A stretch of DNA of 64,000 nucleotides. It comes from an uncultured Candidatus Rokubacteria bacterium. GTDB taxonomy: Bacteria > Methylomirabilota > Methylomirabilia > Rokubacteriales > DASRDR01. Shown in pieces: positions 23,172 to 34,842 of the stretch (position 1 is the first letter of the stretch; the number at the start of each line of letters is the position of its first letter). The notes beneath the pieces were generated by a model. The model did not search any database, was not told the origin of the DNA, and saw only the letters and a program-made list of their open reading frames with translations. A program made the position numbers and the translations under genes. The stretch is from NCBI GenBank assembly GCA_963805625.1, contig CAWDVE010000016.1, positions 384,001 through 448,000 of the forward strand, read 5' to 3'.

Positions 23172-23376
23172 GGGGCCCCCACTAGCGTGGACTTCTCCCC
23201 TGTACGGCCGCGGATCCTCCGACGGGGCGCGAGAACCGGCTGCCGTCGGGCAGCTCCCGGCCGGCTCGGGATGAGGTCCGCATGTGCGGACGCGGCGCTC
23301 CGAGGTATGAGACCGGGCGCGGGTCGAGGCCTCCCGGGGCCGCTCCCCGCGCCTACCAGATCGAGAGGAGACGACC

Positions 23377-24505
23377 ATGCAGAGTGGCTGGCTGGACCAG
23401 TTCTACCGTCGCGTTGCCGCCGCGCCCAGGGCGGAGCCCGAGACCACCGCGCCCCCAGAGGCGCCGAGCGACGTGTCCCGGCGGGCGTTCATCCAGAGCG
23501 GCCTGGCCACGGGCGTCACGGCCGGCATGGCGGCCGGCAGTCATGCTCGCCCAGACGCAGGTCGCGCAGGCGCAGGCGGCGGGCGACACGCCGATCGGGC
23601 CGAAGTGGTGGCCGTCGCGATGGGGCCCGCAGGACGAGGCCGGCGCGTCCAACTGGATCACGCCCGCCAAGGTGCTCGAGGCTGCGCGGCTCATCAAGAC
23701 CGGGAAGATCTACGAGCTCGGGCGCGTCTACGAGGCCGAAATGCCGCTCTTCGGAGCCCGCGTGTTCGCGCTCCGGATCCCCGGCACGCCGACCGGCGGG
23801 CCGTTCGGCAAGAACAAGCTCGTCTACCACGACGAGTTCGTCTGCGACGGAGATCGGCCAGGTCGGCACCCAGTTCGATGGACTCGGCCACATCGGCTGC
23901 ATCACCGGCAAGGACGGCGACATGACCGAGATGCGGTACTACAATGGCTTCACCGAGGCCGAGATGGCCAACGCCTACGGGCTCCAGAAGCTCGGCATCG
24001 AGAAGATGCAAGCCGTTCTTCACCCGCGGAGTCCTGGTCGATGTGGCGGGGCTCAAGGGGCGCATGCTCAACATGGGTGAGGAGATCAGGTCGCCGACGT
24101 CCAGGCCGCGCTCCAGCGCCAGGGCATCGCCGAGTCGAGCATCCAGCCGGGCGACGGGGTGTTCTTCAATACCGGGTGGAGCAGTCTCTGGATGAAGGAC
24201 AACGCCAAGTTCAACGAGGGCGAGCCCGGGATCGGGCTGGACGTCGCGCGCTGGTGCGCGGCCAAGCAGCTCGCCCTGGTCGGCGCGGACACCTGGGCGA
24301 CCGAGGTCGTGCCCAACCCGAATCCGGACCTCGCGTTCGTCGTGCACAACGAGCTGCTCACGAAGAACGGGATCTTCAACCACGAGAACCTGGACTTCAC
24401 CGACCTGATCAAGGACAAGGTCTCCGAGTTCGTCTACGTGTTCGCCCCGCTCCGCATCAAGGGCGCGAACGGGCTCGCCCGGGACGCCCGATCGCGATCG
24501 TGTAA
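23377..24505 (+). pseudogene. Tat-exported cyclase-family (kynurenine formamidase-like) metallohydrolase, frameshifted
   Basis: SRRAFIQ Tat motif; WWPSRWG..DEAGASN, GTQFDGLGH, FTRGVLVD, VGADTW, ENL, PGRPIAI spread over several frames. Confidence 0.75.
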
Positions 24506-25847: not shown

Positions 25848-27452
25848 GTGGAGGAGCGGGCGAAGCTGGCCCCGTACTTCACCAGCGTCGACACCCCGGT
25901 CTTCGCGCTCGTCAACCTTCCCGAGGTCGTCAAGGGCGCCCTCTTCGCGCGCTACTCACGCTCCCCCAAGTCTCTTCGCCGGCTGTTCCTCGACGAGTTC
26001 GCGGGCACGGCGGCGCTGGCGGGGGAGGGGACCGCCCCCGCCGGGGACGTTGGCATCGCGCGAGCGGAGAGCCTCTTCGAGCGCGTCTTCGTCGAGTACG
26101 GGGACGACTCGGTGGCGCAGCTAGGGGGCGTCCACCTCGCGTGCGAGGGCGTTTCCAACGTCCTCACGAAGCTCCTCGAGTGGGGCCGTCTCATGGCCTA
26201 CCTCGAGCAGTCGACCCGCTACGTCCCCTACGCGGACCGGCCCGGCGGGCACTGGCGCTACCACGTGCCGGCGGAGGTCCGCGGGACACCGCTCGAGCGC
26301 GAGTTCGGGGCGACGCTCGACCTCATGTTCGAAACGTACGCTCGGTGGCTCGAGCCGATGCAGGAGCACTTCCGCCGGCGCCACCCGCCTCAGCCGTCGG
26401 ACTCCGAGGTCGTCTACCGGAACACCATACGGGCGAAGGCGCTCGACACCCTCCGCGGGCTCCTTCCGGCCGCGACGCGGTCGAACGTGGGACTCTACGG
26501 CACGGGCCAGGCGTACGAGGCCCTCCTCCTGCGCCTTCGCGCGTCGCCGCTCGCCGAGGCGCGCGCGTGCGCGGACCTCATGCTGACCGAGCTGCGCAAG
26601 ATGATTCCGGCTTTCCTTCGGCGCGTGGATGCCCCCGACCGCGGCGGCGCCTGGTCGGCCTACCTCGCGGCCACGAGTGCGGCCGCGGAGTCGGCGGCCG
26701 CCGCCGCGCTCGGCCAGATCGCTCCGGAGCCGCGCCCGGAGGTGGTGCTCGCGGACTTCGATCCCGAGGGCGAGGTGAAGGTCGTGGCCGCCGCGCTCTA
26801 CGCCGTCTCGGGCCACCCCGACGACCAGCTCCTCGCGCTCGCCCGCCGGATGACCACCCAGGAGCGGGCGGCGGTCCTGCGCGCGTACGTGGGCGAGCGT
26901 GCGAACCGGCGGCACAAGCCGGGACGCGCCTTCGAGCGGACGAGCTACCGGTTCGACATCCTCACGGACTACGGCGCGTTCCGCGACCTCCAGCGGCACC
27001 GGCTCCTGTCGCTCGAGTGGCAGCCGCTCGGTCCCCGGCACGGCTACGCCATTCCCGAGGCGGTGGAGGAGAGCGGCGGCGGCACCGATTGGCGACGGGT
27101 CATGGAAGCCTCGGCCGCGCTCCACGACGCGGTGTCCGCCGTGGGCCTCGCCCCGGCGGCGCCCTACGCCGTGTGCATGGCCTACCGGATCCGCTTCTAC
27201 ATGGAGATGAACGCTCGCGAGGCGATGCACGTGCTCGAGCTCCGGACCGCACCCCAGGGCCACCCTGCCTACCGGCGCGTCTGCCAGGCGATGCATCGCC
27301 TCATCGCGGAGCAGGCCGGCCACCACGGGCTCGCGGCGGCCATGCGCTTCGTCGACCACTCGGCCGTCGAGCTGGAGCGGCTCGAGGCGGAGCGCCGCAC
27401 CGACGCCCGGCGGCGCGCGCTATCGGAGGCGGGGCCGACCGAGCGCGGGTGA
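25848..27452 (+). CDS. thyX: FAD-dependent thymidylate synthase (long two-domain ThyX)
   Basis: ALFARYSRS, YGDDSVAQL, YLEQSTRY, FRDLQRHR, ELRTAPQGHPAYR. Confidence 0.85.
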   Translation: MEERAKLAPYFTSVDTPVFALVNLPEVVKGALFARYSRSPKSLRRLFLDEFAGTAALAGEGTAPAGDVGIARAESLFERVFVEYGDDSVAQLGGVHLACEGVSNVLTKLLEWGRLMAYLEQSTRYVPYADRPGGHWRYHVPAEVRGTPLEREFGATLDLMFETYARWLEPMQEHFRRRHPPQPSDSEVVYRNTIRAKALDTLRGLLPAATRSNVGLYGTGQAYEALLLRLRASPLAEARACADLMLTELRKMIPAFLRRVDAPDRGGAWSAYLAATSAAAESAAAAALGQIAPEPRPEVVLADFDPEGEVKVVAAALYAVSGHPDDQLLALARRMTTQERAAVLRAYVGERANRRHKPGRAFERTSYRFDILTDYGAFRDLQRHRLLSLEWQPLGPRHGYAIPEAVEESGGGTDWRRVMEASAALHDAVSAVGLAPAAPYAVCMAYRIRFYMEMNAREAMHVLELRTAPQGHPAYRRVCQAMHRLIAEQAGHHGLAAAMRFVDHSAVELERLEAERRTDARRRALSEAGPTERG

Positions 27453-27481
27453 ACCGTGCGAGCGGCTCGGGCGGCTCGAGC

Positions 27482-28384
27482 TCAGGCCCGAGCACCCCGG
27501 GGTACCGCGCCCGAGTCGGCCTCGATGAGGGCAGCCAGCTCCCCGAGCCCCGCGAGGCACCGCGGCCGCCGGAGGCGACGAATGGGCACTGCCGCGGCGA
27601 GCCGCGCGCACTGGGCGAGGAAGCTCGGCGAGCCGAGCAGCTCGAGCGCCGGCGCGACATAGGTGTGCTGGAGCAGCTCGAAGACCGCCGCGTGGCCGCT
27701 GAGGGGCTCGAGCCCCAGCGATTCGGTCTCGGTCAGCACGTAGACCCGCCGTAGGGGTCGCGGTGCCGTCGCCACGGTGTCCGCGACTCGCGCCCGCTTC
27801 TCCTCGCTCGCGTGTAGGCGCGGCAGGTCCTCCGGGCTCTCCCCCAGCGCCATTACCGCATCGGGCCACAGCTTGAGCAAGGGGAACCCCGGCAGGGCGG
27901 CCGGTCCGCCCGAGGCCGCCAGGTCCAGGGCGACCACGTCGTCCGCAACGATGGCCCCGCCCCGCGCGTGCAGCGTTGCGGCCGTGGTCGATTTTCCGTG
28001 GCCGGAGTGGCCGAGGAACGCCACCACGCCGCCGTCGAGGCTCACGGCACTTGCGTGGAGGACCAGGAATCCACGCTGGTGGAGGAGGAGCGCGAGCACC
28101 GGTCCCAGCAGATAGAGGCGCAGCAGGTCGAGAGCCGACTCGGGCTGCGGGTCGAGGGTGATCTCGCGCCCGTGACGCAGGAGGACCGCGCCAACGTCCG
28201 GCCAGTAGAGACAGATCTCGTCGGCGTTCGCGCGGAGGAGGCAATCGCCCACCGGCGGGTCGCTTGGGACGCCGGGGACGTGCCCGAGACGAACCACCAC
28301 GTCGGGTGGGGCTCGTCCCGGGATGAGCTCGGGAAGCTCCAGGGCCGAGTGGATGCTCAGGCCGTACGCGACGTAGGTGAACAC
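27482..28384 (-). CDS. HPr-kinase-like Ser/Thr kinase of the lasso cluster (PadeK-like)
   Basis: YVAYGLSIHS, LHASAV, Walker A GHSGHGKST, IVADDV, LKLWPDA; lies directly downstream of the precursors. Confidence 0.85.
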   Translation of the reverse strand: MFTYVAYGLSIHSALELPELIPGRAPPDVVVRLGHVPGVPSDPPVGDCLLRANADEICLYWPDVGAVLLRHGREITLDPQPESALDLLRLYLLGPVLALLLHQRGFLVLHASAVSLDGGVVAFLGHSGHGKSTTAATLHARGGAIVADDVVALDLAASGGPAALPGFPLLKLWPDAVMALGESPEDLPRLHASEEKRARVADTVATAPRPLRRVYVLTETESLGLEPLSGHAAVFELLQHTYVAPALELLGSPSFLAQCARLAAAVPIRRLRRPRCLAGLGELAALIEADSGAVPRGARA

Positions 28385-28425
28385 GGGCGGCCGGCTCGGC
28401 GGCTGAGTCTCGGGAAGCCTGACCG

Positions 28426-28959
28426 TCAGGCCACGGGCGCGCCCTCGCGCACCGCGAGCTCGACGTGGAGGGCGGCGGTTTCCCCGCGGAGCGCCGTCAG
28501 CTCGCGCTCGAGAGCCTCGAGCCGGGCCGTCTGGGTCTGGACCAGGCCGTGGAGGCCCTGGAGGGCCGCGAGGGCAACGCCGGCGGCGTCGAGGGGGAAG
28601 ATGTGCCGGTCGTCCGCGCCCAGGCCGAAGGCGGCGGCGAAGTCCTGGGCCATCGGGCCGAGATGGCGAACGGTCTCACCTTTGTAGGACCACCGCTCGA
28701 TCGGCAGTGCCGCGACCGCGGCCAAGATCTCGCGGAGATCGACCGACTCGAAGCCTTCCTTGACGTTCCGGTCGCTGTCGTCTGCCGGACTGATCTGGGC
28801 GAAGGTGAGGGCGGGCACGCGCCCGTGTTCGGTGAGACGCGGGCGCGTGTACGGCTTCAGCGCGCTCGCGGGCGCCTGCTTCGCGGGCCCGGCTGCCGGC
28901 TGTCCATCCGTGAGGTCCGGCTCGTTCGTCGGTGTCTGGTCCGAGATGCTCAGTTCCAT
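28426..28959 (-). CDS. Lasso-type precursor (copy 2) fused to a Peptidase_S74-like autocleaving chaperone domain
   Basis: Leader KPYTRPRLTEHGRVPALT-F, core AQISPADD, then SDRNVK...LPIERWSYK...HLGPMAQDF and a coiled coil; AGGAGG RBS. Confidence 0.8.
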   Translation of the reverse strand: MELSISDQTPTNEPDLTDGQPAAGPAKQAPASALKPYTRPRLTEHGRVPALTFAQISPADDSDRNVKEGFESVDLREILAAVAALPIERWSYKGETVRHLGPMAQDFAAAFGLGADDRHIFPLDAAGVALAALQGLHGLVQTQTARLEALERELTALRGETAALHVELAVREGAPVA

Positions 28960-29441
28960 GGCGCCCCTCCTGAGAGTCGGTGGATCAGGCTGACGACACC
29001 GCCCACCGCAAGCATGGGGTGAGGGAAGCGGATGCGCTGCCGGGGCCCATCATGCGCGAACGCGGGCATCGGTGCCACCGGCTCTGGCCGTTAGGCCACG
29101 GGCTCGCCCTCGCGCAGGGCGAGTTCGAGCCGGAGGGCAGCGGCCTCCCCGCGGAGCGCCGCCAACTCGCGCTCGAGAGCCTCGAGCCGGGCCGTCTGGG
29201 TCTGCACCAGACTGTGGAGGCCCTGGAGGGCCGCGAGGGCGACGCCGGCGGCGTCGAGGGGAAAGATGTGGCGGTCGTCCGCCCCGAGGCCGAAGGCGGC
29301 GGCGAAGTCCTGGGCCATCGGGCCGAGATGGCGAACCGCCTCCCCCTGGTAGGACCACCGCTCGATCGGCAGCGCCGCGACCGCAGCCAGGACCGCCCGC
29401 GAATCAACCGGCGCGAAGCCATCCTTCAGGCTTCGATCGCT
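28426..29441 (-). repeat. Direct duplication of the 351-nt S74-coding segment (28426-28776 and 29091-29441)
   Basis: Equal length, no gaps, 99/116 identical residues by manual alignment, long identical DNA runs. Confidence 0.9.
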
Positions 29442-29579
29442 CGGTGTCGACAAGTCCGCCAGTGTTGCCTGCGCGATCTTCCCGTGCTCGGTGAGCCGAG
29501 GCGTGACGTAGGGCTTCCGCTCCGACTCCGGCCGTCGCGGTTCCGGGGACTTCATCTTCTCTGCGGGTTTGGGCTCCAT
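29091..29579 (-). CDS. Lasso-type precursor (copy 1) fused to a Peptidase_S74-like autocleaving chaperone domain
   Basis: Leader KPYVTPRLTEHGKIAQAT-L, core ADLSTP, then SDRSLK...HLGPMAQDF and a coiled coil; GGAGAGGAG RBS before the ATG at 29579. Confidence 0.8.
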   Translation of the reverse strand: MEPKPAEKMKSPEPRRPESERKPYVTPRLTEHGKIAQATLADLSTPSDRSLKDGFAPVDSRAVLAAVAALPIERWSYQGEAVRHLGPMAQDFAAAFGLGADDRHIFPLDAAGVALAALQGLHSLVQTQTARLEALERELAALRGEAAALRLELALREGEPVA

Positions 29580-29638
29580 CGGGTGTGCTCCTCTCCACGA
29601 GGTTGAGGGGGAATCCGGATCCTGGGCCCGCCTGCGTC

Positions 29639-31519
29639 TTACCGGATGGCGCGCCGAAGCCAGAGAGTGAGCATGGCGAGCCGCCACACGCGGCGCACGT
29701 CCGTCGGCGCGCCTCTGTGGAGGTACCCGCGGTGCGCGCGGCGGATGGAATCCGCCGGCACGTACGGCGCGAGCACGCTGAGCGCCTCCTTCATGAGGCG
29801 CCCGAGTCGCTCCCGTCCGTAGACGGCGAGCGCCGAGCCGAGCATCAGGTCGAGGGGGGCTTTCCCCGGGCGGTCCCGGATCTCCGGGGGCAGGAGTGAG
29901 CCCAGCGCGTGACGCGCCACCACGCGCGTGCGCCCTTGTCGGATCTTCTGGGATGCCGGGAGCGCGAGACAGAACTCCATGACGCGGCGGTCGAGAAAGG
30001 GGTCGCGCACGTCGACGCCCGCGGTCGCGCCCAACGCGGCAACCGTCTCCAGGATGGCGGCGAGCCGGGCCGAGGTCAGGAGACGCCAGTGCTCGTGCCG
30101 CGCGCCCTCGACGTTTCCACCGCTCCAGTGGGGCGCCGCAGCACGAAGACGCTCGTTGAGATGGATCCGTCGAGCGAAGTCGGCGCGGATCAGCGGCGGC
30201 GCGAGGAACCCCCGGTAACGCAGGTGTCGCCAGGCCCGACGGAACAGCGGCGGAGCCACGGCGCCCGCGACCCCGCGCAGCGTCCGCCAGCTCGGTCGCT
30301 GGAACGAGCGCGAGAGCTGCTGGACCTCACGGCCGAGTGCCAGCCAGCGTCCCTGGCGGGCGAGGTCGTGGAGATACCCCGTTCCATGCGAGACGACGAG
30401 GTCGCCCCCAGTTCCCTCCAGGAAGACCCGCGCGCCGTCGGACCGCGCTGCGCGGTACAGAGCTCCGTGCATGTAGTAGCCGGGAGCGTGAAACGTCTCG
30501 TCCTCCCGGCCCGGCAACCCCTCGAGATCGCCCAGCGGGTCGAGCGTGTCGCCGGGCAGATGCCGGGGCGCGAGCCCGCCCTGGGCCTCGACGGCGGCGA
30601 CGTAGGCGCCCTCGTCGCAGCGCGGGATCGTCGGGAAGCGCGCGGTGTAGGTCGCCAGCGGTCCCGTCCCCGCCGCTTCCTGGACCGCCCGGGCGACGCA
30701 CACCACGGACGACGAGTCGAGCCCGCCGCTCAGCGCGGCGGCGGCCGGGGAGACACTTCGCAGGCGCCACCGCACCGCGTCGGTGAACAGCTCCCGGAAC
30801 TGCTCCGCGTACTCGGCGTCCGACGCCGGGCGGAGCTCGCGGGTCGGATCGAGCTGCCAGTAGGCGCGTGCGGCGGCACCGCCGGTGGTCACGGTGAGGC
30901 AATGGCCCGCCGGGAGGCGGAGGATGCCCTCGTAGAACGTCGCCGCCCGGTCGTCGAGGCCGGGGACGAGGCAGGCGGCGATCCTGATCTCGTCGAGCCG
31001 GCGCGGGACGTCCGGAACCGCGAGCAGGGCTTTGGTCTCCGAGGCGACCGCGACCACCCGGGATCCGAGGTGATAGTAGAAAGGCTTGACGCCCGCCGGG
31101 TCGCGCGCGCAGAAGAGCACGCGCCGCCGGGCGTCCCAGAGCGCGAACGCGAAGTCACCCAGCAGGTGCGCCGGGCACTCCTTGCCCCAGCGCTCCCAGG
31201 CGCGGAGGACGAGCTCCCCGTCGCTGACCCCGTCGGCGGCTCGATGGACGAGCCCCAGGGTCGACATGAGCTCCGCCCGGTTGTCGAGACGCACGTCGGC
31301 GGTCACGACGACCTCGCCGGTGTCGCCGGCCAGCGGGAGCTTCTGCTGGAGCGACTCGGGCGTCGCATGGAGCATCCGGTGGCCGAGGCCGACCGGACCG
31401 TCCAGCCACGTGCCCACCGCGTCGGCGACGCGGGGAGCCAGGCGCTCGATCATCCGGTCGAGCGTCGCCTGATGAAGTGGCGCACCGTCGAGGCGCCAGA
31501 CCGCGGCGATGCTGCTCAC
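29639..31519 (-). CDS. Lasso peptide cyclase (asparagine synthetase homolog, C protein)
   Basis: GDFAFALWD, ARDPAGVKPFYY, PP-loop LSGGLDSS, GTGGD, RDPFLDRR; begins MSSIAAV with no catalytic Cys; GTGA overlap with B2. Confidence 0.9.
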   Translation of the reverse strand: MSSIAAVWRLDGAPLHQATLDRMIERLAPRVADAVGTWLDGPVGLGHRMLHATPESLQQKLPLAGDTGEVVVTADVRLDNRAELMSTLGLVHRAADGVSDGELVLRAWERWGKECPAHLLGDFAFALWDARRRVLFCARDPAGVKPFYYHLGSRVVAVASETKALLAVPDVPRRLDEIRIAACLVPGLDDRAATFYEGILRLPAGHCLTVTTGGAAARAYWQLDPTRELRPASDAEYAEQFRELFTDAVRWRLRSVSPAAAALSGGLDSSSVVCVARAVQEAAGTGPLATYTARFPTIPRCDEGAYVAAVEAQGGLAPRHLPGDTLDPLGDLEGLPGREDETFHAPGYYMHGALYRAARSDGARVFLEGTGGDLVVSHGTGYLHDLARQGRWLALGREVQQLSRSFQRPSWRTLRGVAGAVAPPLFRRAWRHLRYRGFLAPPLIRADFARRIHLNERLRAAAPHWSGGNVEGARHEHWRLLTSARLAAILETVAALGATAGVDVRDPFLDRRVMEFCLALPASQKIRQGRTRVVARHALGSLLPPEIRDRPGKAPLDLMLGSALAVYGRERLGRLMKEALSVLAPYVPADSIRRAHRGYLHRGAPTDVRRVWRLAMLTLWLRRAIR

Positions 31520-31947
31520 CGATGAGGATCCAGCACCGGCAAGGGAACGTAGCGCGCTTCGACGGGGCCGCCGATCAGGATCCGCCCGTCCCGCTCGAGC
31601 CACGCGTGTGCCTCGAAGGCCCGGCCGGAGCCGCCGGCGACGCCGAGCCGAAGCTGACTCGCGTGCCCGCGCCGCGCGAGCAGTGCCTGCGCCGCGAGCG
31701 CTCGGACGAGGCACGTCGTCCGCGGCACGAGCCGGTCGGCCGCTCCCACCGCCCAGACGATGCGCTCGACCGATGGTTCGCCGCCTCGAGGCCGAGGGCG
31801 ATTCGCGAGGGCGCCGCTCGCTCGGTGAACCCACCGGAAGGGCAGCATCCACAGCCCGACACGGGTCGCCGCCAGGAGCCCGGTCGCGGCCACGATCAGG
31901 CGCCGCTCGGCTGGCGGCAGGGCGATGAACCTAGCGAGGCTTCCCAT
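31516..31947 (-). CDS. Lasso peptide leader peptidase B2 (transglutaminase-like)
   Basis: TCLVRALA, LRLGV, FEAHAWLE-DG catalytic Cys/His motifs. Confidence 0.92.
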   Translation of the reverse strand: MGSLARFIALPPAERRLIVAATGLLAATRVGLWMLPFRWVHRASGALANRPRPRGGEPSVERIVWAVGAADRLVPRTTCLVRALAAQALLARRGHASQLRLGVAGGSGRAFEAHAWLERDGRILIGGPVEARYVPLPVLDPHR

Positions 31948-32230
31948 CGGAGACCTCGACGAGCCCAGCCTCGGCCATCGTTTGGAGCAGCGTGACGAGG
32001 TCGCTCTCGCAGCGCGCCGAATCCACCTCGTATTCCGCCAGGAGCACGTCCCGGACGGCCCGGACGCTCCGGGGTGTCTTGAGCAGCTCCCAGATGCGGG
32101 CGCCGACCGGGTCCAGACCGTAGTAGACGCCAGCCTTCAGATGGACGATCGCGACCTCGTCCTCCAGGCTGCAGGACGCCTGGTCCTGCGAGGCCACGAC
32201 GACCGTGTCCAGCGAGATGGCAGCATCCAT
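31931..32230 (-). CDS. PqqD-family RiPP recognition element (lasso B1)
   Basis: EVAIVHLKAGVYYGLDPVGARIWELL...EYEVD...DLVTLLQTMAEAGLV. Confidence 0.92.
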   Translation of the reverse strand: MDAAISLDTVVVASQDQASCSLEDEVAIVHLKAGVYYGLDPVGARIWELLKTPRSVRAVRDVLLAEYEVDSARCESDLVTLLQTMAEAGLVEVSDGKPR

Positions 32231-32297
32231 GGCGTCACGCGCCCCCCGGCGTGACGAGAGCTCGGCTCGCCCGCCGGCCGGAGCCGGTCCGGGTCCG

Positions 32298-32326
32298 ATC
32301 CTACTCGACACGCCCGCCCGCGACAA
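32298..32326 (-). promoter_or_regulatory. Candidate promoter of the lasso operon
   Basis: TTGTCG-17 nt-TAGGAT about 70 bp upstream of B1. Confidence 0.4.
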
Positions 32327-32367
32327 TCATCCGCGCGCCGGAAGCGGGGCAGGGACGACCCGAGGGC

Positions 32368-33570
32368 TCAGGCCGTGCGGTGGAACTCTTCCTTTGCCGC
32401 CCGGAGCGCGGCCGGCTCGGCGAGGAGATCGAGGGCGGTCAGGGCCAGCGCCTTGGCGCCGGCCACCATGCCCGCGCGCGCCAGCGGCGTGGCATTGTGC
32501 TCCGCAAACTCGCGTGAGTGGCCCGGAACGCCGTCGGGCGCGGTGCGGATGTAGGGATGGATCGTGGGGATCGCGTGACTCACGTTGCCGGCGTCGGTCG
32601 AGCCGTAGCCCGCCTGCCCGTCGTCGGGGTCCTCGGGGAAGTCGATGCGCCCGAGGTTCTGCTCGAAGAGCGCCGCCATCGCGGCGTTCGGCTTGAGCGG
32701 ATCGTGGATCCGCGGATCGATGGTCACCTGGGCGCGGCACCCCGTGGCCGTGGCGACGCCTTCCACGGCCGCCTCAAAGCGGCGCCGCACCTCCTGGAGG
32801 TAGACCTTGTCGAGCGAGCGCAGGTAGAAGTCCGCCGCGGTGTACTCGGGAATGATATTGGGCTGCTGGCCGCCGACCGTGATCACGCCGTGGATCCGGG
32901 CGTCCGGGCGGAGCTGCTGGCGCATCGCGTCGAGCGCGTTGAAGAGCCCGATGACGGCGTTCAGGGCGTTGACGCCCCGCCACGGCCAGGACGACGCGTG
33001 CGCGGCCTTGCCGAAGTACTCGACCTTGGCCTTCATGAGACCGAGCGTCGGCCGCCAGACCTGCGTCCCGCAGCGCGGGTGGATCATCATCGCGGCGTCG
33101 ACGTCGCGGAACACACCGGCGTCCAGGAGCTTGACCTTGCCCGCGCCGCCTTCCTCCGCGGGCGTCCCCACCACGGTGATCCGACCGTTGAAGGGGAGAC
33201 GTGCCCCGGCGAGGCTCCTGGCGACGACCGCGAGCGCGGCGCCCGCCCCCGCCCCCGCCGTCGCGATGACGTTGTGGCCGCACGCGTGGCCGATGCCGGG
33301 GAGCGCGTCGTACTCCGCCATCACCGCGATCGTCGGGCCGTCCCCCGCCCCGGGCACCTCGGCGCGAAACGCGGTCGGCAAGCCACCCACACCACGCTCG
33401 ACGCGGCATCCCCGGCGCTCGAGGAACTCGGTCAGCCAGGCCGCCGCCTGCTCCTCCTTGAAGGCCAGCTCCGGGTGGGCGTGGATCCGGAGCGCGAGGC
33501 TCCACAGATCCTCGGCCATCCGATCGACGGCCTCGGTCACCTGAATCTTGAGGCGGTCCAGGTCACTCAT
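32368..33570 (-). CDS. M20 family amidohydrolase (ACY1L2/AbgB-like)
   Basis: HAHPELAFKE, AEYDALPGIGHACGHN, GTPAEEGG, GSTDAGNVS. Confidence 0.9.
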   Translation of the reverse strand: MSDLDRLKIQVTEAVDRMAEDLWSLALRIHAHPELAFKEEQAAAWLTEFLERRGCRVERGVGGLPTAFRAEVPGAGDGPTIAVMAEYDALPGIGHACGHNVIATAGAGAGAALAVVARSLAGARLPFNGRITVVGTPAEEGGAGKVKLLDAGVFRDVDAAMMIHPRCGTQVWRPTLGLMKAKVEYFGKAAHASSWPWRGVNALNAVIGLFNALDAMRQQLRPDARIHGVITVGGQQPNIIPEYTAADFYLRSLDKVYLQEVRRRFEAAVEGVATATGCRAQVTIDPRIHDPLKPNAAMAALFEQNLGRIDFPEDPDDGQAGYGSTDAGNVSHAIPTIHPYIRTAPDGVPGHSREFAEHNATPLARAGMVAGAKALALTALDLLAEPAALRAAKEEFHRTA

Positions 33571-33684
33571 CGCGAGCCTCCAGGGGAAACGGTCAGGCGA
33601 CGGCGCGATCATGGGGCCACCGCGGGGGCAGGCTCCCATGCCCATCGCGGAGGTGTCAAGGCAGCCGGTGGCGCGCGACGCTCG

Positions 33685-34842
33685 TCACGGAGCGGCGGCG
33701 AGCCGCGCCCCCGCAGCGCGCCCGGTGGCGATCCTTGCCTCGAGGGAGGGGTGCGTCGCGAAGAGGAGCTCCCGCAGGCGGCCCGGGCGCCGTTCGGCGA
33801 GATTGAGCCGGCCGAGCCGCTCCATGGCGGCGACGAAGGCATCGGGCGCGCCGCTGACGTCGAGGGCCACGCGATCGGCCTCGCGCTCGAGTCGGCGCGA
33901 CCATGCCGCGACGATGGGCGTGGTGAGTAGCCCGACGGCGGTCAGGACCAGGGCCAGAAGGGGGAGGCCGGCGGGATCCGCGGACCCGGCGAGACCGAGG
34001 ACGCCCGCACCCGCGCGGAGGGCCCGATCGGCGACCCACAGCGCGCCCACGATGAGGATACTCTGGAGCAGAAGCCCCTTCGCCACGTGGCTCCTGGCGT
34101 GGTGCCCGAGCTCGTGCGCGAGGACCACCTCGACCTCCTCGACCGGGAACTCGCGGAGGAGCGTGTCACTCACGAGGATCCGCCGGGTGCGCCCGAGGCC
34201 GACGACGGCCGCGTTCGCGACGCGCCCCTTGCGCGAGAAGTCCGCGACGACGACCTCGGCCGCCCGCACCCCCATGCGGGCGGCGAGGGCGAGGATCCGG
34301 GCGCGCAGCGCCGGGTCCTCGAGCGGCGTCAACCGGTAGAAGAGCGGGACGAGCCAGATCGGGACCACGGCGGCCAGGACCACGATCCCCGCCGTCAGGA
34401 CACCGCTCGCCCAGAGCCACCACCGGTCCGGACTCCACCGGAGGAGACCGTAGACGATCTCGACCGAGAGTAGCCCGAGGAGGCCCCCGATGGCGAGCGC
34501 CTTCGCGCGATCGCCGAGCCAGCTACCGAGGCTCTGGGTGAGCAAGCCCGCTCGGCGGGGGAGGACGAAGCCGGCCACGACGTCGAGCGGAACAGTCAGG
34601 AGAATCTGCGAGGCGCCGATCGCCAGGGTGATGGCCGCGAGGACCGCCGCGGGGGAGTGAAGCCGCGTTTCGAGGACCGCGGCCAGGCCCGCCGCGGCGC
34701 CGCTCCAGCTCCACCACGCCAGGAGGACGACGCCGAGAGTGAGGTCGACGAGCGTCAGCGCGAACTGGCGTCGGTGGTACCGCCGGGCTCGATCCTCGTC
34801 CCCGTCGGTCGCGTGCATCGCTTCCAGCGTATCGCGGGCCAT
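33685..34842 (-). CDS. M48 family (Ste24-like) membrane zinc metalloprotease
   Basis: ANAAVVGLG, AHELGH, EREAD, THPS..ARI; several TM helices. Confidence 0.9.
   Translation of the reverse strand: MARDTLEAMHATDGDEDRARRYHRRQFALTLVDLTLGVVLLAWWSWSGAAAGLAAVLETRLHSPAAVLAAITLAIGASQILLTVPLDVVAGFVLPRRAGLLTQSLGSWLGDRAKALAIGGLLGLLSVEIVYGLLRWSPDRWWLWASGVLTAGIVVLAAVVPIWLVPLFYRLTPLEDPALRARILALAARMGVRAAEVVVADFSRKGRVANAAVVGLGRTRRILVSDTLLREFPVEEVEVVLAHELGHHARSHVAKGLLLQSILIVGALWVADRALRAGAGVLGLAGSADPAGLPLLALVLTAVGLLTTPIVAAWSRRLEREADRVALDVSGAPDAFVAAMERLGRLNLAERRPGRLRELLFATHPSLEARIATGRAAGARLAAAP

Follow-up and report, generated by a model that had tools for sequence, protein, structure and literature searches.

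Candidate RiPP precursors with a Peptidase_S74 autoprotease as probable follower in a lasso-type gene cluster of an uncultured Rokubacteria bacterium

Results and Discussion

A 64,000-nucleotide stretch of DNA from an uncultured Candidatus Rokubacteria bacterium (assembly GCA_963805625.1, contig CAWDVE010000016.1, positions 384,001 to 448,000; here called the window) contains a minus-strand lasso-type gene cluster for a peptide made by the ribosome and modified after translation (RiPP), in which two precursor genes, A1 and A2, each encode a lasso-type leader, a very short predicted core, and a Peptidase_S74 domain of the kind found in phage tailspikes and MYRF. This joining of leader, core and S74 in one protein is genuine and conserved, and it seems not to have been described. 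We consider it highly probable that the S74 domain is a self-removing follower of the precursor. More tentatively, a single tailspike/MYRF autoprotease lineage may serve as a class-independent self-removing RiPP follower, joined here by a repurposed lasso cyclase that would close phosphoserine cores of 5–11 residues head-to-tail.

Leader, core and S74 domain of the two precursors

Precursor A1 (162 aa; 29091..29579, minus strand, with GAGGAG 5′ of the ATG) and precursor A2 (177 aa; 28426..28959, minus strand, with AGGAGG 5′ of the ATG) both consist of leader, core and S74 domain. The leader motif, YxxPxLxxxGxxxxxTx, spans Y24–L40 in A1 (29460..29510, minus) and Y37–F53 in A2 (28801..28851, minus), and is followed by a predicted core of six residues in A1 (ADLSTP, 29442..29459, minus) and eight in A2 (AQISPADD, 28777..28800, minus). 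Both ends of each core are predicted: the first lies after the Thr(-2)-x pair, an established point of leader cleavage, and the second directly before the S74 Ser. The remainder of A1 is an S74 domain (29091..29441, minus) with a Ser47/Lys52 dyad, an HLGPMAQDF motif and a predicted C-terminal coiled coil, and that of A2 (28426..28776, minus) has its dyad at Ser62/Lys67. An earlier note on this DNA, made from the letters alone, had described a 116-aa domain running from SDRxxK onward and called for a hidden Markov model search with Peptidase_S74; the length is indeed 116 aa in both proteins, and both match PF13884 above its cut-off of 22 bits (A1, 38.7 bits, E 1.3e-9; A2, 38.6 bits, E 1.4e-9), with the matches beginning at Ser47 and Ser62 respectively. 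The two S74 domains are 88–93% identical in nucleotide sequence beyond the first 60 nt, and the leaders agree at only 26 of 51 nt.

These domains are like those of phage tailspikes and MyRF in their PF13884 scores, the S-D-x-x-x-K dyad, the GPMAQ motif and, by prediction, the C-terminal coiled coil, but differ in what precedes them: only 46 (A1) or 61 (A2) residues lie before the S74 Ser, with no beta-helix or fibre body, so that the part released would be a leader-core of 46–61 aa. Because there is no fibre body upstream and the neighbors are RiPP and housekeeping genes, we rejected a phage tailspike or cellular fibre as the identity of A1 and A2. They are the only PF13884 matches in the 7.3-Mb genome, and a whole-genome scan for the leader motif, in which candidates were told by eye from numerous chance matches, gave no other convincing lasso-type precursor; the earlier note had named a separate short precursor as a finding that would count against it.

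There are 652 homologues of A1, and the best 120 of these together with A2 form an alignment (n = 121) that was picked by similarity to A1, which inflates the conservation of the S74 domain but not its contrast with the core. Mean column identity is 0.74 in the leader, 0.35 in the core, and 0.89 in S74. The Y, P, L, G and Thr(-2) columns of the leader are 99–100% conserved, and the Ser, Asp, Arg and Lys of SDRxxK (S47, D48, R49 and K52) are 100% conserved, with the two residues between R49 and K52 at 63% and 40%. The cores between them are 5–11 aa long and include 107 distinct sequences. Ser is present in 118 of the 121 (at positions 2–4 in 107) and Pro in 108, immediately before the S74 Ser in 46. 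Any Asp or Glu is lacking in 75 cores; 17 have one at positions 7–9, and only 10 have a further residue behind it. The homologues carry database names such as 'hypothetical', 'endosialidase-like' and 'Chaperone of endosialidase', close to the tail-fibre label that had been foreseen for them.

The Ser-Lys dyad, five residues apart, is invariant in all 121 proteins, as well as in 41 of 41 in the A3 set, and trimer-dependent autocleavage by such a dyad is established for MyRF and endoNF. All of the top ESM Atlas clusters are PF13884. A PDB sequence search with the alignment labelled A1 returned no matches, and one with the A1 protein returned coiled-coil and chance matches only; the wider alignment gave one weak match, to MyRF (7DC3, E 0.028), which is the best PDB match of the family profile and has its residues 587 and 592 in register with the Ser and Lys. 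In MyRF, according to the accessible text of PMC8326128, S587 and K592 form the dyad, the cut falls between P586 and S587, a trimer is required, the cleavage site threads through the trimer core, and autocleavage may be independent of the upstream stalk. An AlphaFold model gives the S74 domain a long and confident C-terminal helix, some of which has a predicted local distance difference test score (pLDDT) above 90. When 150 S74 domains were placed on a FastTree tree (labelled by eye, with 39 rows unlabelled, and in a set biased by the query), a single clade (support 0.86) took in 42 of the 46 rows that bear a leader, along with 5 of the 65 long proteins, and labels change 8 times, as against 35 for shuffles; on this tree the RiPP-precursor S74 domains group in a lineage of their own.

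Free siblings and other leaders before S74

Some loci encode precursors that lack the S74 domain, and these free siblings end at the S74 boundary. At locus L103, three fused genes stand in tandem with a free one, which has a ribosome-binding site of its own and terminates in GGSLTDA and a stop codon; in L006, QVPLPGNSNQLRF followed by a stop sits directly before QVPRGGSSQQLE-SDRNIK. Four free precursors are present in L100 and one in L004, and a methyltransferase is encoded there between the M20 gene and that for the RRE (the recognition element of RiPP pathways). A leader-core profile search returned 22 short proteins, without genomic context, of which 14 are of the free type with cores of 9–12 aa; Ser occurs at positions 5–7 in all 14, and Asp or Glu at 7–9 in one. 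Candidates set aside include P0278, which ends inside SD on a 1.3-kb contig, P0297, which looks frameshifted, P0294, P0296, P0298 and P0299, which are of other or conventional types, and an open reading frame in L120 with no in-frame start. We note that the free precursors at L100:12780-13560 and L004:4123-4296 are Asp-rich with an S-G-[IL] motif, and that the window has none of these.

The same S74 lineage follows leaders of several kinds. Among the best 150 representatives of 18,352 matches, a lasso-type leader is present in 17, whose cores range from 3 to about 22 aa; a complete lasso core (with its own Asp8 and a tail of 7–11 aa) precedes SD in four of the 17, and four reach the NF033521 cut-off. 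Other leaders before S74 are Nif11 (P0205, above cut-off), PqqD-fused, twin-arginine (Tat)-like and double-Gly. P0122 (382 aa) has five leader-core-SDxxxK repeats with a single whole S74 at the end, which suggests that cleavage may occur at the internal SDxxxK sites. Because siblings stop where S74 starts, and because one S74 lineage follows such diverse leaders, the domain is most likely a follower. The proposal of the earlier note, RiPP precursors with a built-in autoproteolytic follower, is thus supported by four results: the S74 profile match, the invariant dyad, the conserved-variable-conserved pattern, and the siblings that end at the boundary. Of the findings that the note had named as refuting it, none of those open to sequence analysis turned up.

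Further S74 proteins deserve mention as observations in their own right. In Nostocales, tandem double-Gly-leader proteins have cores ending YDP[ND/E]GS-x-R-[YF]-x before S74 (L054:7752-11812 and L076:7761-11670, and also L055, L064–L066, L071 and L075; a cultured strain, Nostoc carneum NIES-2107, is included, BAY30049.1), and in the two Nostocales loci read a 745-aa YcaO/TOMM (thiazole/oxazole-modified microcin) cyclodehydratase comes after the S74 proteins. A Dadabacteria locus (L013:1237-6864) has two CxxC-core and S74 proteins beside a PqqD-PGA_cap fusion that resembles the C-terminal epimerase MslH (314 bits, under the cut-off of 700), and it also holds a 2-oxoglutarate-Fe(II) oxygenase and an HTTM protein. 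Two copies of a Tat-like leader with short core and S74 flank an HPr-kinase-like gene in L104:1-2200 (G135), where the S74 proteins precede a glycosyltransferase-like gene. Long proteins ending CTCNKICTCIPV(P) immediately ahead of S74 are found in L011, L018, L032, L033 and L040, and Cys-rich stretches abut S74 on its N-terminal side in Myxococcota and Chloroflexota (L025, L028, L056, L062, L050, L063, L069 and L070).

The pathway enzymes and the cyclase clade

The enzymes of a lasso pathway stand upstream of the precursors: an RRE, a transglutaminase-like leader peptidase, and a cyclase with an intact ATP motif. All six minus-strand open reading frames of the earlier note are present where it had placed them, as are the overlaps it reported, which measure 17 nt between RRE and B2 and 4 nt between B2 and C. 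Its enzyme assignments hold for the RRE, or B1 (99 aa, PqqD family; 31931..32230, minus; PF05402, above cut-off, E 9.7e-18; NF033536, 62 bits, under the cut-off of 80), for B2 (143 aa; 31516..31947, minus; NF033537, 89 bits, cut-off 33), in which the Cys78 (TCL at 78) and His114 (HAW at 114) motifs are both present, and for the cyclase C (626 aa; 29639..31519, minus; NF033535, 630 bits, cut-off 525), which has a GTG start and lacks an N-terminal Cys. The HPr-kinase-like call for K (300 aa; 27482..28384, minus) is less secure, as the matches to PF07475 (23.8 bits against 33.3) and TIGR04352 are weak and under cut-off; its P-loop at 125 is intact, and its position matches that in related clusters.

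In a quick tree of 32 cyclases, built from matches longer than 400 aa only, those beside the fusions in the window's genus form one clade with support of 100 (eight rows, with two more that lack a precursor), and the cyclase of a Chloroflexota fusion falls outside it. The clade members are full-length, share 59–93% identity, and in eight of eight retain SGGLDS at 264–269, D373, and the R505-P-F-x-D motif; position 3 is Ser or Gly in seven of eight. Beside the more distant cyclases are conventional precursors, and all 19 distinct ones, inspected by eye, have Asp or Glu at position 8 (14), 9 (1) or 10 (4) with a tail behind. In the loci with this clade's cyclase (L004, L100 and L103), none of six free precursors has Asp or Glu at 7–10. 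No precursor was found by regular expression beside the cyclases of L145, L146, L151 and L153. We also note that in the conventional lasso precursors of L149, L150, L152 and L154 the ring Asp is at 10 if the leader is cut after Thr(-2)-x, where 7–9 is usual, and that the lasso-type clusters of L159, L161 and L163 have two tandem cyclase genes and one precursor.

A proposed maturation and its product

A lasso core has Asp or Glu at positions 7–9 followed by a loop and a threading tail. If S74 cleaves, neither core has this form: that of A1 has no Asp or Glu, and that of A2 has Asp7 and Asp8 with at most one residue behind. The pathway therefore resembles a kinase-bearing lasso pathway until leader removal, and then departs from it at the core. 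The 'lasso-type cluster' of the earlier note stands as regards leader and enzymes; the product is probably not a lasso, because the cores are too short and mostly without a ring Asp or Glu. The fusion also occurs on non-lasso leaders.

We propose that S74 would trimerise and then cut itself off before its Ser, freeing a C-terminal carboxylate on the core; that K would phosphorylate an internal core Ser; that RRE and B2 would remove the leader and free the core amine; and that the cyclase would probably join this new N-terminus to the freed carboxylate, giving a small head-to-tail ring and not a lasso. By analogy to LppK, which phosphorylates core Ser3 in the accessible part of PMC13381572, an internal Ser is the expected phosphosite, and Ser4 of the core is its likely position. 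Asn-synthetase-like enzymes adenylate carboxylates, and after S74 cleavage the new C-terminus is the sole carboxylate common to all cores, which is why we favor head-to-tail closure; given cleavage, this carboxylate has about an even chance of being the acceptor. There are relatives that work at C-termini: a short YxxP peptide is modified at its C-terminal carboxylate by FzmA (PMC13622209), while TsrC and ScdTA act on C-terminal carboxylates and PesC also modifies C-termini (PMC13060819). The entire sequence of autocleavage, Ser phosphorylation and head-to-tail closure is possible, and we rate it a little short of probable. The predicted monoisotopic masses are 664.25 Da for cyclo-ADL(pS)TP and 877.32 Da for cyclo-AQI(pS)PADD; the A2 mass is the same whether the ring closes head-to-tail or as a lactam on Asp7 or Asp8 of that core.

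Several observations weigh against this proposal. The leaders of the window score under the NCBIfam lasso cut-offs (12.9 against 33, and 12.4 against 19), so that the 'textbook lasso leader' of the earlier note is borne out by the conserved columns but not by these models. The AlphaFold monomer model is mediocre (pLDDT 70, predicted template modelling score 0.40), and no exporter gene is present in the window's cluster. A stop codon would give the same core end, and the reasons we can offer for retaining S74, namely timing, stabilisation or trimer avidity, are guesses. Changes specific to the cyclase clade in the synthetase domain are few (W443, and E503 in 4/8), and therefore nothing marks an altered acceptor site; the search for such residues among the eight members led nowhere. 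No precedent for head-to-tail closure by a lasso cyclase was found among the papers listed in a literature search. In Phycisphaerae, RRE-B2-K pathways and S74 fusions occur at loci that hold no cyclase, no NF033535 match exceeds the cut-off in any of three genomes of this kind, whose completeness is not given, and a same-genus cluster, L101, has lost most of C; the cyclase may therefore be dispensable. Finally, the S74 Asp falls at the spacing of lasso ring sizes, at core position 7–9 in 83 of 121 and 7–10 in 106 (mode 8, minimum 7), and several nearby conventional rings end in SD, for example GGSPGVSD.

Some of these points are better accommodated by other readings. If S74 removes itself and the cyclase is idle, or makes an amide or other C-terminal derivative, the product would be a linear, singly or multiply phosphorylated peptide of the LPP (linear polyphosphorylated peptide) type, which we think unlikely. 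The Phycisphaerae loci (RRE-B2-A-K-nucleotidyltransferase) argue for it in having D/E-free cores and S74-fused paralogues without a cyclase, as does the fact that Ser is the only near-universal core residue, and LPP itself, in the accessible text of PMC13381572, and the C-terminal modifications by TsrC, ScdTA and PesC (PMC13060819, in part) provide precedents; however, the cyclase remains full-length with its catalytic motifs in all eight clade members, and B2, which frees the amine that a cyclase needs, is retained. The amide variant is further disfavored in that the window cyclase lacks the N-terminal Cys of Gln-dependent amidotransferases, and seven of the eight clade members have Ser or Gly at position 3. 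We hold it similarly unlikely that a normal lasso cyclase uses the Asp of the S74 SD as acceptor to give a lasso-capped or branched protein, in which a lactam bridging the scissile bond would block, time or survive autocleavage. Only with this Asp do the cores (83 of 121) fit the lasso pattern; the ring in A1 would have eight residues, the Asp is never before position 7, sister cyclases serve Asp-10 precursors, conventional rings such as GGSPGVSD resemble core plus SD, and some lasso pathways tolerate a C-terminally fused protein during core maturation (accessible text of PMC13352647). Yet the spacing differs within single clusters (8 and 10 in the window, 8 and 11 in L001, 9 and 13 in L103, 11 and 14 in L004), whereas a change of ring size by one residue lowers lasso yield (same source, same part); 28 of 121 have no acceptor at 7–9 by either route, the Asp is equally invariant behind non-lasso leaders (41/41 in the A3 set), the free siblings do not have it, and the corresponding site in MyRF is threaded through the trimer core (PMC8326128, in part).

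It is improbable that only the cores with their own Asp or Glu, such as A2 with Asp7 and Asp8, close as tail-less side-chain lactams and that the rest are only phosphorylated. Ordinary cyclase chemistry would be enough for A2 and the 17 cores with Asp or Glu at 7–9, but a residue follows in just 10 of the 121, and all three precursors of L106 have no Asp or Glu despite an intact cyclase. Ligation between chains, in which an S74 trimer aligns three cores and the cyclase makes cyclic dimers or trimers, would account through trimer-dependent cleavage for keeping a trimerising domain when a stop codon suffices, and cores of 5–6 aa would presumably be strained as monomer rings; we have no direct evidence for it, free siblings exist without the trimerising domain, and we judge it very improbable. 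Equally remote is a recombination accident with a cellular fibre gene that left an unprocessed fusion in a decaying cluster. Partial clusters in the same genus (L145, L146 and L101) and the fact that just 6 of the genus's 14 other genomes have the fusion could be so explained, but not the 652 homologues with invariant leader and dyad, the repeated duplication with core diversification, or the presence in several phyla and behind several leader types. Of all these readings we continue with autocleavage, Ser phosphorylation and head-to-tail closure.

Relation to known systems

Among the closest known systems are the kinase-bearing lasso clusters with split B1 and B2, which we take to be those of the paeninodin and pseudomycoidin type, a name that PMC13381572 likewise employs. 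The RRE, B2, NF033535 cyclase, HPr-like kinase and YxxPxL...G...T(-2) leader are alike, and the nearest cyclase relatives of the window serve ordinary lasso precursors; but here the precursor is 162–177 aa with an S74 domain, the core is 5–11 aa and mostly without ring Asp/Glu or tail, and the conserved Ser is internal rather than C-terminal. The LPP system (LppA/B/K/S/N) shares the YxxP leader, the RRE and, by a weak family match, the HprK-like kinase, but where the window has B2 and C it employs a protease resembling signal peptidases and is without a cyclase; its core is 45 aa long, and the term S74 is absent from the main text (PMC13381572). The window cyclase is of the same fold family as FzmA, PesC, TsrC and ScdTA; as described, FzmA, TsrC and ScdTA attach hydrazine or ammonia, PesC makes a nitrile, and no member of this group forms a ring with the amine of the core itself. 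Unlike them, the window enzyme has the profile score of a lasso cyclase and is encoded alongside B2.

Enzyme-fused RiPP precursors are known from borosins and BURP-domain cyclases, and head-to-tail rings from cyanobactins. To our knowledge, RiPP followers are otherwise short peptides removed by separate proteases. As in bottromycin and cyanobactins, the core here is bounded C-terminally by conserved sequence, but bottromycin relies on a separate hydrolase to take its follower off (PMC10885120), whereas here the follower would itself be the protease; S74 does not occur in the accessible main text of that review of RiPP proteases. No description of S74-fused RiPP precursors was found among the papers listed in a literature search that left most subscription journals and genome-mining supplements outside its reach. 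They would have been overlooked because proteins of 150–200 aa labelled as tail-fibre chaperones escape searches for short open reading frames. If the reading is correct, a precursor whose follower is a built-in protease represents a new maturation logic, a new RiPP class is hidden under 'endosialidase chaperone' labels, and clusters seemingly without a precursor would be explained. A leader followed by S74 is also a class-independent handle for genome mining, with both core ends defined by sequence, and head-to-tail closure, if true, would be a reaction new to lasso cyclases and might be put to use in the production of small cyclic peptides.

Distribution and genomic context

The neighborhood search proposed in the earlier note found the same arrangement elsewhere: the order RRE-B2-C-A(n)-K recurs with two to three fused precursors in other genomes and metagenome contigs. 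Matches to A1 occur in 10 of 251 genomes of the class, seven of these in the window's genus, and the weak class matches G247 and G094 have no leader before S74. Among 77 genome loci from the best 80 of 166 relatives, of which the closest named are Methylomirabilia/Rokubacteria assemblies, 10 have a lasso-type leader before S74 (four Rokubacteria, five Phycisphaerae and one Chloroflexota), and six of the 10 have pathway genes inside the locus. With the cyclase as query, metagenomes yielded 27 loci, three carrying fusions. The partial clusters in the genus have a cyclase alone, lack a precursor, or have the cyclase deleted. Contigs of four public DNA runs from four studies cover the stretch in 21–30 of 30 bins; no public RNA dataset is listed as carrying it. 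Given the 652 homologues, the recurring gene order and the independent coverage, the fusion is not due to chance or to an assembly artefact.

No sigma-70 promoter-like or terminator-like site was found in window positions 27000-34000, and the gap from the M20 gene to the start of the RRE is only 137 nt. This M20 amidohydrolase gene (32368-33645, minus) lies upstream of the cluster and a ThyX-like gene (25848-27452, plus) downstream; both flanks recur in L003, and M20 in L004, and the cluster therefore occupies a fixed chromosomal site. Farther along, at 23282-24505, a gene resembling metal-dependent hydrolases/cyclases is seemingly split over several frames, possibly by sequencing frameshifts.

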